Below are positions 4,963-27,940 of a stretch of DNA of 64,000 nt, piece after piece. Each line of letters opens with the position of its first letter. Within the stretch, counting starts at the first letter, position 1. The stretch comes from Escherichia coli (GTDB lineage Bacteria; Pseudomonadota; Gammaproteobacteria; Enterobacterales; Enterobacteriaceae): assembly GCF_050920415.1 (NCBI RefSeq), contig NZ_CP169309.1; one strand, given 5' to 3'. The notes beneath the pieces are model-generated. The model searched no databases and was not told where the DNA came from. It was given only the letters and a program-made list of their open reading frames with translations. Both the position numbers and the translations under genes were made by a program.

Positions 4963-5264
4963 ACCCCGTCTCCCGTTATCCGGAAACTGACAACAATAAA
5001 AAAGCCACCCGTTAATTACTGATGGCTCTGATGCATAAACGTCATCATTCCTGACCGTTATGATTGACAATGGTTATCATTTTTATATAAAAATACTCCC
5101 GATATGTGTTACATATCATTTCTCCACGGGGAATATCCCCACGCCAGCGTCAGACTCGTTTTCCCGTTCTCTTCTGTGCTGGCGTTTTTTTTATTATGAT
5201 GTCGGTACATTTATCTCCAGCACCAGGCTTTCAATCTCAACACCATACGCGGAATTTTTGGGCG

Positions 5265-5295
5265 TAAAAAATCCCCTCCGGTGAGGGGATTTGCT
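5265..5295. terminator. Hairpin terminator downstream of TerB-like operon (possibly bidirectional)
   Basis: CCCCTC-ACCG-GAGGGG stem with T/A runs on both sides. Confidence 0.5.
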
Positions 5296-5523
5296 TATGT
5301 AAACATTTACACTGCTTACCTGCATGGTGCCGGGTGCCTCCCGGTGAATTCAGTATCAGCACCTGAATCCGCAATTATCCCATATACCTACTTGCTGATT
5401 GCCCCTCCGCACAGGGGGATTCACCATGCGAAATTTTTTTAACAAATGCTCAGTCTGACAGGCAACTGTCAACTGGCTGAATTGTGAGACATTTAAAATT
5501 TTCGGGGCGTAACTGATACCCGG

Positions 5524-6289: not shown

Positions 6290-6366
6290 TGGCGCGTTGT
6301 ACTGGATTCGAACCAGTGACCGATTGCTTAGAAGGCAATTGCTCTGTCCGACTGAGCTAACAACGC
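6290..6366 (-). tRNA. tRNA-Arg (anticodon UCU), phage-encoded
   Basis: Minus strand GCGTTGTTAGCTCAGTCGGACAGAGCAATTGCCTTCTAAGCAATCGGTCACTGGTTCGAATCCAGTACAACGCGCCA folds as a canonical cloverleaf with anticodon loop CTTCTAA. Confidence 0.85.
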
Positions 6367-6379
6367 ATGATGCAGATAA

Positions 6380-6460
6380 TGGACCGCCATCGAGGACTCG
6401 AACCCCGCACCAACAACCCTGTTATCGTGTCGTCTGCTCTTCCTGATGAGCTAATGGCGG
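6380..6460 (-). tRNA. Atypical tRNA-like gene (acceptor, D and T arms present; anticodon arm does not fold canonically; possibly degenerate)
   Basis: Minus strand CCGCCATTAGCTCATCAGGAAGAGCAGACGACACGATAACAGGGTTGTTGGTGCGGGGTTCGAGTCCTCGATGGCGGTCCA: acceptor pairing, GCTC/GAGC D stem, GTTCGAGTC T arm and CCA end, but 27 nt between D and T stems. Confidence 0.45.
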
Positions 6461-6467
6461 TACGTTA

Positions 6468-6542
6468 TGGTGGCCCTGCTGGATTTGAACCAGCGACCTG
6501 GCGATTATGAGTCGCTCACTCTCACCACTGAGCTAAAGGGCC
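6468..6542 (-). tRNA. tRNA with CAU anticodon (resembles E. coli tRNA-Ile2, lysidine type; could be Met type)
   Basis: Minus strand GGCCCTTTAGCTCAGTGGTGAGAGTGAGCGACTCATAATCGCCAGGTCGCTGGTTCAAATCCAGCAGGGCCACCA; anticodon loop CTCATAA; acceptor stem one pair short of canonical. Confidence 0.8.
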
Positions 6543-6582
6543 GGGCGCAGGATAATAACGGTACGTAACTAATTCTGCAATA

Positions 6583-14353: not shown

Positions 14354-14574
14354 GCTGCACCTCCGAGATGCTTCATGTTTTTTCCGGAGCGAAAGGCTAT
14401 AAGCGGCATACTGACGCGGTAATTACGGCCCAGCGGTTCACAAATCACCTTCTGACATTCACGGTCAACCAGGCTAACACGTAGAACATGCCCTGCAGGC
14501 GTGGTGTACCACTGACCCGGTCGAGGACAACGGAAAGTCTGATTGGTAAACCGTTTGAAAATATTCCGGATCAT
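14350..14574 (-). CDS. Hypothetical small protein
   Basis: 74-aa ORF overlapping its neighbours' ends in operon; no motif recognised. Confidence 0.4.
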   Translation of the reverse strand: MIRNIFKRFTNQTFRCPRPGQWYTTPAGHVLRVSLVDRECQKVICEPLGRNYRVSMPLIAFRSGKNMKHLGGAA

Positions 14575-15722
14575 TTGCGCCCCCTTACCTCGGAAGAGTT
14601 CAGCGACGAATGAATAAGACGGGCAAGAAATGCCGCATCGTTAATTCGGTCATACAGACTTACAGCCAGCGGTGATTCAGCTTTTTCCAGCATGGGATAA
14701 AGCTGCTGCAACCAGACCTGATGAATTGATGAAATGTAGGAATAGAGTACGCTGGCGTTATGTGCAACGTCGCTCGGTACAGCGGGCTTTGAAAGCTGTT
14801 TCTCCATCTGGTTAAAGGCATTGATGTATGCCTCTTTGAACTGGGCAGCACGTTTACCCGTGAAACCCATAGCAAGAAACGCAAAACCGTCGCGGGTTAT
14901 TTGATAGCAAGGTAGTTTGCGGCCTGTGCAATCGGTGTAATCACTCACCGAAAAATTGCGGGCAGTGAATGATGCGGAGCATTCAAGCGTGCGGATCTTT
15001 TTCAGTACATCGTCATGACGTTTGGAGAAGAAGTTGGCAACAGCCAGGGATGAAGTAACAGCCTGACCATCAACGATGGCAATTTCAGGTTGAGTGAGGG
15101 TTGGGATCGTAGCCATGATGGCAGCCTCTTTGGTGATTTTTAATAACTCACCACCAAGGCTTTCCACGACCTTATTGGTGGTGAGACGTACAGGGGTGGA
15201 AATACCGGTCACCAAAGAACCCGGCCCAACCGAAGTTGGCCCTGCACGCCCCACCATAATTTGGGCGTAATGCTGCTCATGACACAAAAAAACCGCAAGA
15301 GCGCGGTTGTGCGCTTTGGTGAATTCCGGGTTTCCACGCCCGGCACCCGCTTTATAAGGTGCCTGAACAGTGTAACGTCCCGGAATGGCAGAATCAATGT
15401 GCTGGTGGTCCTTCACACTCAACAAAATCACGCCTGAATTTCCACAAAGGGCTAAAGCACTCATGCGGGTAGTCTTTGCGAAGATAGATAACGCGCTGTG
15501 TTTCTGGCTCCCAACGAATAACATGAACATAAAGTCCTCTTCCGTCACGAAACCAGCGGTTAAGTTCCTGCACAACTCGCCCCCCACAGTCAGGTAAAGT
15601 TCTCTGTGGTTACTTACAGCCAGGAGATTTGGTAATCTGCATTCATGCCGTAACAACAGGTGTTCAGCGACGCTGACCACCAGCTGTTGCGACAAATGGT
15701 TATTTGCCGTTAAACTGTTCAT
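14571..15722 (-). CDS. Rha-family phage regulatory protein with about 200-aa N-terminal extension of unknown function
   Basis: C-terminal half from MATIPTLTQPEIAIVDGQAVTSSLAVANFFSKRHDDVLKKIRTLEC... is Rha-like; N-terminal half is in the same frame with no stop; ATG at 15722 overlaps the upstream TGA (ATGA); an internal ATG at 15116 has an AAGAGG RBS. Confidence 0.7.
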   Translation of the reverse strand: MNSLTANNHLSQQLVVSVAEHLLLRHECRLPNLLAVSNHRELYLTVGGELCRNLTAGFVTEEDFMFMLFVGSQKHSALSIFAKTTRMSALALCGNSGVILLSVKDHQHIDSAIPGRYTVQAPYKAGAGRGNPEFTKAHNRALAVFLCHEQHYAQIMVGRAGPTSVGPGSLVTGISTPVRLTTNKVVESLGGELLKITKEAAIMATIPTLTQPEIAIVDGQAVTSSLAVANFFSKRHDDVLKKIRTLECSASFTARNFSVSDYTDCTGRKLPCYQITRDGFAFLAMGFTGKRAAQFKEAYINAFNQMEKQLSKPAVPSDVAHNASVLYSYISSIHQVWLQQLYPMLEKAESPLAVSLYDRINDAAFLARLIHSSLNSSEVRGRK

Positions 15723-16604: not shown

Positions 16605-17279
16605 ATGAAAACAGTCCATGACATCCGGCGGTCTAACGCCAGAAAACTGAGAGATGGTGTTGGCGGGAATTCTTCCTTTGCCACCATGATTGATCGCGAA
16701 CCAACCCAGACCAGCAGGTTTATGGGAGATGGTGCTACTAAAAATATCGGTGACAGCATGGCACGGCACATCGAAAAATGTTTCGACCTGCCTGTCGGAT
16801 GGCTTGATCAAGAACACCAGACAACGAACATCACAAAAAAACCTGATGTTTCAATCACTAATAAACAAATAACGTTAGTCCCTGTCATATCATGGGTACA
16901 GGCCGGAGCATGGAAAGAAGTTGGCTATTCTGAGGTTGATTTGAGCACAACAGAAACATATCCCTGCCCTGTACCCTGTGGCGAAATGACTTATATATTG
17001 AGGGTGATTGGTGATTCAATGATTGATGAGTACCGTCCGGGGGACATGATTTTTGTCGATCCAGAAGTACCAGCCTGCCACGGCGATGACGTTATTGCAT
17101 TGATGCACGATACAGGTGAAACCACCTTCAAAAGGTTGATAGAAGACGGGACACAGCGTTATCTCAAAGCATTAAACCCCAACTGGCCTGAGCCTTACAT
17201 TAAGATAAACGGTAATTGCTCTATCATTGGTACAGTTATTTTCTCAGGAAAACCAAGAAGATACAAAATTAAAGCCTGA
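16605..17279 (+). CDS. cI: CI-type prophage repressor (HTH plus S24 peptidase/LexA-like autocleavage domain)
   Basis: 224 aa; C-terminal S24 domain with GDSM motif (YILRVIGDSMIDEYRPGDMIFVD). Confidence 0.9.
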   Translation: MKTVHDIRRSNARKLRDGVGGNSSFATMIDREPTQTSRFMGDGATKNIGDSMARHIEKCFDLPVGWLDQEHQTTNITKKPDVSITNKQITLVPVISWVQAGAWKEVGYSEVDLSTTETYPCPVPCGEMTYILRVIGDSMIDEYRPGDMIFVDPEVPACHGDDVIALMHDTGETTFKRLIEDGTQRYLKALNPNWPEPYIKINGNCSIIGTVIFSGKPRRYKIKA

Positions 17280-17292
17280 TCAATGTCTATGA

Positions 17293-17315
17293 ACCTGCTT
17301 CGGCAGGTTTTTTTA
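17293..17315 (+). terminator. Rho-independent terminator after cI
   Basis: CCTGC-ttcg-GCAGG followed by T7. Confidence 0.7.
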
Positions 17316-17318
17316 TAC

Positions 17319-17349
17319 TTGACAATGTACCATTAAGATACATAATGTA
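17319..17349 (+). promoter_or_regulatory. pL-like promoter overlapped by OL operators
   Basis: TTGACA (-35) at 17319-17324, CATAAT (-10) at about 17341-17346; same ATGTA-N9-TACAT operator as OR at 17325-17343 plus a half-site. Confidence 0.6.
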
Positions 17350-17474
17350 CCTGCATAAGATATCGAACAGGCAGGACGCCCACGAAGTAGCCGTCCGGGG
17401 CATACGAAGACCGGAATGGTTCGTAAATAAAAAAGCGCCCAAGTGGACGCTTCACTTTTGAACTGGATTTATAA

Positions 17475-17684
17475 TCAATTATTTTCTTCATAAATGTTTT
17501 GTAATGTATTTATGAGATTTGGTATTTCTTTTATGGGAAAAGAATATATTGGACTTTCGATAATTTTATCAGATTCAAATGGTGGTTGTTTGCAGGACAG
17601 TTGAACTATAACTGAATTATGATCTTTAACTGGCACACAGTACCAACCACATACATCAAAAACAGGAGTATTTTGATTATCCAT
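17475..17684 (-). CDS. Hypothetical small protein in AT-rich segment, convergent with pL transcription
   Basis: 69 aa from ATG with GAGGA RBS (MDNQNTPVFDVCGWYCVPVKDH...); markedly AT-rich. Confidence 0.4.
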   Translation of the reverse strand: MDNQNTPVFDVCGWYCVPVKDHNSVIVQLSCKQPPFESDKIIESPIYSFPIKEIPNLINTLQNIYEENN

Positions 17685-18528
17685 TATGTCCTCGACAACT
17701 AAAAACACTGCGTACAAACCTCAAAAGCAGGGAGTTATTTATAAAATTTCATAAAGAATAATTACTGATAGCGACAATTCATTGTTCTTGAATTTTGAAA
17801 AATAGCAAGACAAAACAATGTAAACTTATTTAAGAAAAGTTCTTATTATGTAAACAAAACAACCAATTCGTTATATAGGAAAAACAAATAGTACGCAAGA
17901 AAATATTCAACAGGGGTATTACATTCAACCATAAGAGTAATCGTCTCTTTGGTAACTAATACCGAACATTTTATTGTAACACGTCGTATGGCACATGCGT
18001 CGTTAGCGGTCTGGGGACGTTAAAGGGGACAATCCACTCCTTGCTCGGGCAAACAAACCAGGTAGCCGGAATGTGCAAGTCAATGATGATGCTGATAAGA
18101 CGCCTAACCAGCGTGGCGATCCGGTTTGACGCCTGGGAAGAGACCAGGGTGCAACGATGAGGGCATTTATGGAGCCGCGACAAAGTGTGGTGCCATAACT
18201 GGCTAAGTGCTCTCAGCGTTGTGGTAATCCGCGAAATGGCGCGGCGGTAAGTATGGCGGGGTTACTCTTTCCCCGTTGAGGACACCGGATTGTCAGGTTG
18301 ACCATACGCCTGAGTGACAACCCCACCACAACAGCCACTGCTTTGGCGGTACCAGCTTGTACCCTTGCTTCCGGCTGGTACCGTCCTTTTTACAAAACAG
18401 AGAAGAGCATCACCGGACGACGGGCTCATAACCCAATCCATCCGGGCGGCTGCCACCGCAGGTGTTCTTCTCTGTTTTGTGGAGAAACCAACCGGCCTTG
18501 CAGGGTCGATATGATGAGGAGCAGCAAA

Positions 18529-18891
18529 ATGGCTAGCGAACGCAGTACTGATGTGCAGGCATTTATCGGGGAGCTGGACGGCGGCGTATTTGAAACCAAA
18601 ATCGGCGCAGTTCTCAGTGAAGTCGCTTCCGGTGTGATGAACACGAAAACCAAAGGTAAGGTCTCACTCAACCTGGAAATCGAACCATTTGATGAGAACC
18701 GTGTGAAAATCAAACACAAACTCTCATATGTTCGCCCGACTAACCGCGGGAAAATTTCCGAAGAAGACACCACCGAAACGCCGATGTATGTCAATCGCGG
18801 TGGTCGCCTGACTATTCTGCAGGAAGACCAGGGACAATTACTGACTCTTGCCGGTGAACCTGACGGAAAACTCCGCGCAGCAGGTCATTAA
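18529..18891 (+). CDS. YfdP-like early-left-operon protein
   Basis: 120 aa from ATG with GAGGAG RBS (MASERSTDVQAFIGELDGGVFETKIGAV...); followed by YfdQ/YfdR-like genes as in CPS-53. Confidence 0.6.
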   Translation: MASERSTDVQAFIGELDGGVFETKIGAVLSEVASGVMNTKTKGKVSLNLEIEPFDENRVKIKHKLSYVRPTNRGKISEEDTTETPMYVNRGGRLTILQEDQGQLLTLAGEPDGKLRAAGH

Positions 18892-27309: not shown

Positions 27310-27500
<191 letters not shown>

Positions 27501-27617
27501 CCCGATGGACATTTTTCCAGCAATTACACCTCCGTCGATAATTAACTATTGACGAAAAGCTGAAAACCACTAGAATGCGCCTCCGTGGTAGCAATTCTTT
27601 TTAAGAATTGATGGTAT

Positions 27618-27704
27618 GCGAAGGTGGCGGAATTGGTAGACGCGCTAGCTTCAGGTGTTAGTGTCCTTACGGACGTGGGGGTTCAAGTCCCCCCCCTCGC
27701 ACCA
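27618..27704 (+). tRNA. leuQ: tRNA-Leu (CAG)
   Basis: GCGAAGGTGGCGGAATTGGTAGACGCGCTAGCTTCAGGTGTTAGTGTCCTTACGGACGTGGGGGTTCAAGTCCCCCCCCTCGCACCA; class II tRNA, anticodon CAG. Confidence 0.9.
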
Positions 27705-27732
27705 AAAACCACGTTGATATTGCTCGCACTGG

Positions 27733-27819
27733 GCGAAGGTGGCGGAATTGGTAGACGCGCTAGCTTCAGGTGTTAGTGTTCTTACGGACGTGGGGGTTCA
27801 AGTCCCCCCCCTCGCACCA
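27733..27819 (+). tRNA. leuP: tRNA-Leu (CAG)
   Basis: Second near-identical copy (one T/C difference in variable arm). Confidence 0.9.
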
Positions 27820-27853
27820 AACGAGGCGATATCAAAAAAAGTAAGATGACTGT

Positions 27854-27940
27854 GCGAAGGTGGCGGAATTGGTAGACGCGCTAGCTTCAGGTGTTAGTGT
27901 CCTTACGGACGTGGGGGTTCAAGTCCCCCCCCTCGCACCA
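27854..27940 (+). tRNA. leuV: tRNA-Leu (CAG)
   Basis: Third copy, identical to the first. Confidence 0.9.

Follow-up and report, generated by a model that had tools for sequence, protein, structure and literature searches.

A mosaic non-coding leader with a DicF-like terminator upstream of the early-left genes of an Escherichia coli lambdoid prophage

The window analysed here is a stretch of 64,000 nucleotides (nt) of an Escherichia coli genome (assembly GCF_050920415.1, contig NZ_CP169309.1) that contains a lambdoid prophage with an immunity region of the e14/SfV type and early-left genes of the CPS-53 type, yfdP, yfdQ and yfdR. We consider the leader between its pL-type promoter and yfdP. 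The promoter lies immediately downstream of the terminator of the repressor gene ymfK, and the same promoter block is present in SfV and in many IMG/VR prophages. Transcription is predicted to start near position 17353; yfdP starts at 18529, not at 18530, and the leader is about 1.17 kb long. Along the pL transcript an element L0 is followed by an AT-rich segment, module A, module B, a hairpin T, a stem D and yfdP (Table 1). The same order of modules recurs in SfV, in mEp460-type phages, in Uetakevirus phages and in the ban operon of phage P1.

The initial annotation of this region had described a pL-like promoter followed by a long leader without an N gene, an AT-rich gene of 69 amino acids (aa) on the minus strand, and a GC-rich non-coding stretch with hairpins. 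All of this holds. The 69-aa gene is annotated in RefSeq, the GC content is 26-32% around it and 54-57% in positions 18000-18600, and the hairpins are at or near the places indicated. No Arg-rich N-like open reading frame (ORF) was found: those on the plus strand of the leader that reach 30 aa are short or begin upstream of the transcription start, and are never Arg-rich at the N-terminus. ARAGORN found neither tRNA nor tmRNA in the leader.

The GC-rich stretch consists of conserved non-coding RNA modules arranged as a mosaic; it is not a nut site, nor is it a decayed gene. In BLAST comparisons with 5426 complete E. coli genomes, parts of it were found in 4766 genomes, at up to 10 places per genome, and at least 80% of it in 1145; the whole leader arrangement of the window occurs in only 29. 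The sub-segments match different phages: positions 17968-18224 match P1, P7, D6 and the region just upstream of tRNA-Arg in phiV10, positions 18218-18340 match K-12, and positions 18344-18528 match SfV, SfII, mEp460-type phages and ST64B. The suggestion that the stretch is functional at the RNA level is upheld, as it is conserved, and compensatory changes and G-U pairs mark its plus strand as structured. Of the checks proposed for it, alignment revealed covarying helices, and the search with Rfam covariance models gave no match in 17350-18528 at gathering or permissive thresholds.

Table 1. Features of the leader and of the adjacent sequences (positions in the window)
Feature	Position	Strand	Description
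ymfK	16605-17279	+	cI-like LexA-family repressor gene, followed by ymfT, ymfL and a Rha-family gene
Intrinsic terminator of ymfK	17291-17310	+	8-bp stem followed by a T-run; ymfK is annotated
pL-type promoter	17319-17346	+	sigma-70 type, TTGACA-16 nt-CATAAT, 11/12 match; flanked by ATGTACC operator repeats
L0	17363-17427	+	leader RNA element of about 65 nt, two helices, directly after pL
L0 outer helix	17363-17367 with 17420-17424	+	
L0 inner hairpin	17394-17398 with 17411-17415	+	
Hairpin after L0	17430-17467 (hairpin 17432-17453)	both	hairpin AAGCGCCCAAGTGGACGCTT, followed by the apparently decayed boxA position CACTTTTGAAC
69-aa gene	17475-17684	-	convergent ORFan, RefSeq hypothetical protein WP_021559686.1
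Module A	17973-18225	+	pseudoknotted structured RNA of about 250 nt, seven-helix covariation model
P1 (module A)	17982-17987 with 17997-18002	+	
PK1 (module A)	17991-17994 with 18073-18076	+	proposed pseudoknot
P2 (module A)	18010-18014 with 18058-18062	+	
P5 (module A)	18100-18103 with 18111-18114	+	
PK2 (module A)	18106-18109 with 18123-18126	+	pseudoknot
P6 (module A)	18132-18136 with 18144-18148	+	loop GAAGAGA
P7	18150-18168 with 18205-18223	+	long helix at the 3' end of module A, 17-22 bp
Module B	18218-18332	+	pseudoknotted domain closed by P8
P8	18218-18225 with 18325-18332	+	GUUGUGGU with ACCACAAC, closes module B
First hairpin of module B	18229-18244	+	CCGCG-AAATGG-CGCGG; CCGCG 18229-18233 with CGCGG 18240-18244
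T	18345-18391	+	DicF-like terminator hairpin, stem of 12-13 bp, CU-rich loop of 15-17 nt (UUGUACCCUUGCUUCCG), then UUUUU
T stem strands	18345-18356 with 18374-18385	+	GGCGGTACCAGC with GCTGGTACCGTC, then CTTTTT
Stem D	18387-18485	+	about 25 bp, overlaps the U-tract of T; perfect 15-bp core 18392-18406 with 18466-18480
yfdP	18529, stop at 18891	+	first early-left gene, ATG start, RBS GAGGAG 18516-18521; phrog_204, unknown function

By its anatomy T is a predicted intrinsic terminator (-23 kcal/mol, z = -4.0), and by alignment a homologue of the DicF terminator of the Qin prophage. A perfect 9-bp inverted repeat had been noticed at this place as part of a possible antitermination element. The repeat exists; however, it is longer (12-13 bp) and forms the terminator rather than an antiterminator. 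The K-12 match of the leader is the dicF locus of Qin, between ydfC and dicB. Positions 18218-18324 match the ydfC-dicB spacer, the alignment ending 25 nt upstream of DicF, and T and DicF themselves have in common the 5' half of the stem, the U-tract and the flanks. At the DicF position UUUGGCGGUA(C)CAG and the U-tract are still present in the window, but the loop and the 3' stem differ. DicF terminators start with GGCGGUAUCAG and end in a U-tract; T reads GGCGGUACCAGC...GCUGGUACCGUC and then CUUUUU. The context is also that of dicF, that is, a repressor-controlled early operon, after a cI-like gene and pL, with a precursor domain upstream. Hairpins of the T type form a family across the fetched loci, with covarying stems (GGCGGUACCAGC/GCUGGUACCGYC, GGCGGUGAUGG/CUAUCACCGCC, GGCGGUGGCAG/CUGACCACCGCC) and variable CU-rich loops.

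DicF of Qin has been described in two forms that end at the DicF terminator, one of 53 nt with a 5' end produced by RNase E and one of 190 nt with a 5' end produced by RNase III (PMC10448788). A 72-nt form is made by RNase III on read-through transcripts and has its 3' end in the downstream region (PMC5069750). If 190 nt are measured upstream from the DicF terminator, the RNase III cut falls within GUGCGCUUCCGGUUGUGG, the 3' strand of a long helix in Qin (fold z = -3.4), and this strand aligns with GUGCUCUCAGCGUUGUGG, the 3' strand of P7 in the window. Given this alignment and the stem and U-tract kept at the DicF position, positions 18213-18391 therefore appear to be the counterpart of the 190-nt DicF species, about 185 nt long and with a new terminal hairpin, T.

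Stem D folds with -64.5 kcal/mol (z = -4.6) and encloses two small hairpins; a further small hairpin, the ribosome-binding site (RBS) GAGGAG and yfdP follow it. Its analogue in Qin is the stem UUUUGUGAUG/CAUCACAAAA, which comes right after DicF, in the region of the RNase III end of the 72-nt form. We counted as RNase III sites those helices that have at least about 20 bp and coincide with the position of cleavage mapped in a homologue. P7 (17-22 bp) and D (about 25 bp) are such helices, and thus are putative RNase III sites. A TTG-started ORF on the plus strand (18298-18891) is an in-frame upstream extension of yfdP across T and D.

In module B, 93.9% of cells pair over nine distinct sequences. 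Compensatory changes are seen in P8, in GUAUGG/CCAUAC and in the crossing helix UUGUC/GACAA, which covaries and makes the module a pseudoknot. They provide moderate support for module B as a plus-strand RNA. P8 reads GUUGUGGC/GCUGCAAC in Qin and is 10 bp long in a sister module, B'. The first hairpin is invariant in eight of the nine homologues, and thus carries little covariation information. In phage P1 a homologue of module B follows Pban, and the GenBank feature there is called 'dicF-like region'.

The strand GUUGUGG may pair either with CAAC upstream, forming the base of P7, or with ACCACAAC downstream, forming P8. The two pairings are mutually exclusive (18150-18155, 18218-18225 and 18325-18332). 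In one locus (L070) the three elements are altered together, reading GUAGUG, CACUAC and GUAGUG, and are followed by UUUU. The exchange between P7 and P8 suggests a switch, or refolding after cleavage by RNase III.

Module A was sampled from 108 IMG/VR loci, which gave 21 clusters at 96% identity, and from species-representative genomes. In the model, 94.6% of cells pair over 16 diverse sequences, and 21 of the 46 pairs show compensatory changes. None of 500 shuffles reached the observed score, and slid controls gave 29-43%. Compensatory changes strongly support module A as a structured RNA, and G-U pairs place this RNA on the plus strand. In divergent members (SPN1S, Tyrion, a Klebsiella phage and mEp390) helix P2 has changed from UCUGG/CCAGG to UCCGG/CCGGG, which is an additional compensatory change. 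PK1 is invariant, and this pseudoknot is only a proposal; PK2 has one covarying pair. P7 on its own has a fold z of -4.3, and its strands are replaced with pairing kept, for example by GGTAAGAGCA/TGCTCTTTCC and GATGATGGCT/AGTCATCTTC. The core of the module also contains invariant unpaired stretches. The invariance of the 18-mer of module A that served as search pattern is partly an artefact of this use. Module A has no Rfam match, and we found no relevant paper containing its core sequence in the literature searched.

Module A is present in 1833 of the 5426 complete E. coli genomes (34%). Among cultured phages it occurs in mEp460, cdtI, Ayreon, Stx2c and some Stx2a phages, in phiV10, SPN1S and Tyrion, in P1, P7, D6, SJ46 and RCS47, in a Klebsiella phage and in mEp390, and it is never annotated as RNA in these records. 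The range observed, Enterobacterales, is a lower bound, as genome contigs were scanned for an exact pattern. Three contexts were found. In lambdoid phages the module begins 25-55 nt after pL, and in many relatives the pL block is only about 30 nt away from it. In Uetakevirus phages it is free-standing, with its own promoter, directly before tRNA-Arg. In phage P1 it lies between trnI and tub/ban, a spacer for which a P1 transcriptome preprint was consulted and yielded no data. The protein encoded downstream of it in phiV10 is unrelated to YfdP, and thus module A is not tied to one gene.

P7 is followed by a 'cargo' slot, closed by P8 and occupied by module B, by B', by a domain similar to the small RNA (sRNA) STnc100, or by a real tRNA; T comes next. 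In Uetakevirus phages the acceptor stem of the cargo tRNA-Arg, GUGGCAU/AUGCCAC, begins within the GUUGUGG motif. Sequences resembling the T-arm of tRNA (GGTTCGATTCC and complementary arms) were seen in or after the variable tip of P7 in five loci (L024, L028, L070, L130 and L138, the last from SPN1S). Hairpins with GAAAGA or GAAGAGA loops (GCCGGAAAGACGGC, CCUGGAAAGACAGG) are repeated several times in L024, L131, L141 and the P1 ban leader. They resemble P6 of module A and, loosely, the lambda nutL boxB GCCCUGAAGAAGGGC. The ban operon of P1 (NC_005856, 68,700-71,290; L136) is controlled by C1. It begins with the module-B homologue, which has its own terminator, and continues with a long helix of the P7 type, tRNA-Asn, tRNA-Thr, tciABC, tRNA-Ile and the unannotated module A, after which comes a short upstream ORF coupled to ban.

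Directly after pL, L0 begins within about 10 nt of the predicted transcription start. Its helices pair in 94.7% of cells over 30 sequences, nine of the ten pairs show compensatory changes, and none of 500 shuffles of these sequences reached the observed score. The compensatory changes strongly back L0 as a structured plus-strand RNA. A scan with the core of L0 returned more than 100 distinct contexts, in which promoters and operators of many types precede the element; the invariance of GCCCACGAAGTAGCCG is partly an artefact, as it served as the search pattern. The cultured phages SfV, SfII, SfIV, ST64B, mEp237, SEN34 and SPN3UB carry L0, as do phages of Yersinia, Pantoea, Citrobacter, Klebsiella and Pectobacterium. 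No match to L0 was found in Rfam, and no relevant paper with its core sequence in the literature searched. In two IMG/VR prophages (L160, L261) a truncated 5' end of module A, TGGTTGCAACACGGTGCATGTGTCGTAAGCAGTC, stands directly before L0, which looks like a scar of recombination between two alternative leader types.

In 16 of 106 contexts a hairpin and then a canonical boxA, GCTCTTTAACAA, come after L0 at +30. The window keeps the hairpin, and the position occupied by GCTCTTTAACAA in the relatives reads CACTTTTGAAC and looks decayed. The hairpin doubles as the terminator of the 69-aa gene when read on the minus strand (17453-17432). The protein encoded by this gene has no PHROG matches, and its homologues form only four E. 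coli protein clusters in a search of 5.8 billion proteins. The AT-rich segment, from 17468 to about 17964, is a variable slot between L0 and module A. It is missing between pL or L0 and module A in relatives, and in SfV and related prophages the slot is filled by other small ORFs, none of them Arg-rich. With its deviant GC content, its own minus-strand terminator and its absence from otherwise collinear relatives, the 69-aa gene and the AT-rich region upstream of it resemble a foreign insert in the manner of a moron.

Taken as a whole, the region is best explained as a non-coding leader of the dicF type, composed of several modules and processed, with RNase III sites in P7 and D, a partial terminator T, and release of an RNA of the DicF family of about 185 nt. 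We give this reading a probability of about 0.6. Upon derepression, pL would transcribe L0, the foreign AT-rich segment, A, B, T and D before yfdP and the rest of the early-left operon. Cleavage of P7 by RNase III and termination at T would release an RNA of about 185 nt composed of module B and T, the counterpart of the 190-nt DicF species, and in read-through transcripts a cut in D would replace termination at T. Cleavage of P7 would also free the GUUGUGG strand from the base of this helix, and the strand could then close module B via P8. The variable CU-rich loop of T may pair with host or phage mRNAs, the targets being different from those of DicF. As a partial stop, T would also limit the transcription that reaches the genes from yfdP through int.

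The homology to Qin, the folds, the covariation and the anatomy of the terminator are observed in the sequences, and cleavage by RNase III, termination at T, release of the sRNA and its action in trans are expected from Qin by homology. Several points weigh against this interpretation. Both the cleavage sites and the efficiency of termination are extrapolated from Qin. The Rfam DicF model (RF00039) has no match to T at E<=10, in segments of 1401 nt and 111 nt, at a gathering threshold of 48 bits and with 76.7 bits for the K-12 Qin control. The 13-nt 5' seed of DicF, UUCUGGUGAC, with its RNase E site, is missing from the alignment of T. The duplex of T with the translation start of ftsZ is no better than that of shuffles (z = +0.97, compared with -1.5 for DicF) in what is a crude and weak test, and thus a trans function of T like that of DicF is unproven. 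The model assigns no role to L0 and the conserved core of module A, and is silent on how a phage without N overcomes a strong terminator ahead of its whole early-left operon. Finally, in this particular prophage read-through from pL may be weakened or abolished by the AT-rich insert, whose hairpin works in both directions.

Another possibility, tentative and on balance unlikely, is that A, L0 or both are antiterminator RNAs acting in cis. Folded while the pL transcript is still being made, they would alter RNA polymerase or keep Rho away, and transcription would then pass T and later terminators, as with put of phage HK022. The put RNA binds the zinc-binding domain of the beta' subunit and suppresses terminators in cis. 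This is the most interesting of the competing explanations, because L0 and A are situated near the 5' end of repressor-controlled transcripts that cross the strong terminator T, and because they substitute for each other. Among 100 distinct contexts sampled by the T-D junction alone, 46 had only A, 46 only L0, three both and five neither; this way of collecting loci reduces the sampling bias, but related sequences are not independent events. The three contexts with both elements are of the window's type. Of the five with neither, one has an internally deleted A, three have pL directly before cargo B', and one is rearranged. At least two types of promoter occur with either L0 or A, as would be expected of interchangeable modules with one job, and thus the split does not simply follow immunity groups. 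The near-mutual exclusivity is suggestive, though not proof. The phages concerned have no N gene, and Casjens and co-workers have noted that lambdoid phages lacking N may rely on some unknown mechanism similar to put (PMC12315714).

Like put, which has about 70 nt and two stem-loops just after PL, L0 is a structured RNA from the first part of the pL transcript of an N-less lambdoid phage, similar to putL in size (about 65 nt) and position. However, one of its two helices encloses the other instead of standing beside it, and neither L0 nor A matched the HK022 early region in nhmmer and blastn searches. Module A, at 250 nt with seven helices, is three to four times larger than put and pseudoknotted, and is cut off by a helix of the RNase III type. 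HK022 has both putL and putR, whereas these phages have one copy of A or L0; a second copy, on the pR side, was sought for either element and none was found. In phage P1 the first terminator of the ban operon precedes module A by 2.3 kb, the three contexts mentioned above have pL directly before B' and T without A or L0, and L0 is found upstream of canonical boxA sites as well. A link to RNA polymerase is only putative here. In its broadest form, which we regard as well short of likely, the idea is that L0 and A represent two classes of leader RNA, undescribed and interchangeable, that carry early transcription past a built-in terminator in N-less lambdoid and other temperate enterobacterial phages, as analogues of put with unrelated folds, and that A might also be set free as a stable RNA acting in trans.

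Less probable again is that module A is a stable structured RNA acting in trans after its release by RNase III, with a host enzyme, the ribosome or a defence system as conceivable targets. The leader would then amount to a polycistronic operon encoding non-coding RNAs, in the order A, cargo (an RNA or a tRNA) and DicF-like sRNA. The two pseudoknots and the invariant unpaired stretches of the core are compatible with this, as are the free-standing copies with their own promoter and a real tRNA-Arg as cargo in Uetakevirus phages, the position after tRNA-Ile in phage P1, and the spread of the module over unrelated types of phages that share few proteins. However, no target is identifiable, and a position near the 5' end of the transcript suits a role in cis equally well. 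The data are as compatible with a trans-acting role of module A as with a cis role in read-through.

A nut site of the lambda type is very improbable. It would consist of a boxA, TGCTCTCAG, and a boxB-like CCGCG-AAATGG-CGCGG hairpin, on which Nus factors or some N-like protein that has escaped recognition would act. Both motifs are present as first reported, TGCTCTCAG at 18208-18216, they are 12 nt apart, and the hairpin is nearly invariant. However, TGCTCTCAG is the 3' strand of P7, where it pairs with GAUGAGGGCA, and elsewhere its sequence varies freely, with unrelated replacements that keep the pairing. The two motifs belong to different modules of the mosaic, in phiV10 a tRNA directly follows the 'boxA', the leader has no Arg-rich ORF, and relatives have a genuine boxA at another place, 30 nt after L0. 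This reading was rejected on covariation.

Hardly credible is also the remaining suggestion, that the GC-rich stretch is a decayed protein gene or neutral filler left by the deletion of a module: hypothetical proteins have been called over it by automated annotation in some phage records, and one minus-strand frame is open for 84 codons, but 37% of dinucleotide-preserving shuffles give an equally long frame, so that this is an effect of base composition, while substitutions show no codon periodicity (18, 18 and 13 at the three positions), most indel runs are not multiples of three (55, 31 and 13 with length mod 3 of 1, 2 and 0), conservation tracks plus-strand helices containing G-U pairs, and the stretch is kept in more than 1100 genomes.

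Returning to the interpretation as a processed leader of the dicF type, its closest known counterpart is the DicF locus itself. Both have a repressor-controlled operon of the pL type, a homologous module-B domain, a long upstream helix where RNase III makes the 5' end in Qin, a terminator with the 5' half-stem GGCGGUA(Y)CAG and a U-tract, and a long stem just downstream. Unlike DicF, the window has a different loop and 3' stem, lacks the 13-nt 5' seed with the RNase E site and any Rfam DicF score, and has no evident complementarity to ftsZ; its upstream partner is module A, whereas in Qin it is ydfABC.

The STnc100 (RF02076)/PasD sRNAs of lambdoid prophages are similar in having a closing helix of the GGUG...CACC type, a hairpin right after GGUGAAU and a terminal terminator hairpin. 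However, module B has no score in the STnc100 model, which gave no match in 17250-18650, and the window's own copy is in the late region. A weak match was found in the Qin spacer. STnc100-like domains occur in the cargo slot of leaders of the SfV type and, in Qin, between dicF and dicB. The copy in the late region (5260-5458, minus strand) is a full-length match of 148.7 bits, downstream of the genes for tRNA-Met and tRNA-Arg(UCU) (6290-6543, minus strand). It is built in the same way as the units of cargo and terminator in pL leaders, with the closing helix GCAUGGUG...CACCAUGC and the hairpin right after GGUGAAU. A preprint on Pas sRNAs was set aside, as it concerns sRNAs of the late region and not this leader.

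The C4 RNA of P1 and P7, the CI RNA of P4 and the stable RNAs of the T4 tRNA cluster are likewise small phage RNAs cut by host RNases from longer leader or tRNA transcripts, but are unrelated to the leader modules in sequence and fold. GOLLD and ROOL are complex conserved folds of prophages that often adjoin or contain tRNAs and have an unknown function; module A differs in being much smaller, in having no Rfam match to them and in being restricted to phages of Enterobacterales in this sampling.

Two further loci of the window contain known RNAs. Matches to the C4 antisense RNA (83.6 bits) and isrK (67 bits) lie at 15174-15362 on the minus strand, inside the ORF 14571-15722 on the same strand and within the N-terminal third of the RefSeq coding sequence (CDS) of a 383-aa Rha family protein. 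The start of this CDS is probably over-extended across two RNA genes of an antirepressor control region similar to immI of P1. Positions 27396-27940 contain a naRNA4 match and three tandem tRNA-Leu(CAG) genes (both strands), which looks like a host cluster of the leuQPV type, that is, host DNA beyond the end of the prophage.

The leader region is routinely mis-annotated as encoding hypothetical proteins. DicF was reported in 2016 to have no phage homologues (PMC5069750), and it has so far been treated as a curiosity of cryptic prophages. The architecture of its precursor appears, however, as a general plan of early leaders in functional phages, namely mEp460, cdtI, Stx2c, SfV, the ban operon of P1 and Uetakevirus, and the variable loops of the terminal hairpins could carry different seeds. 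Modules A and L0 are two strongly covarying structures without an Rfam family and are apparently undescribed. Their either/or pattern ahead of a strong terminator provides a testable handle on how N-less lambdoid phages pass early terminators.

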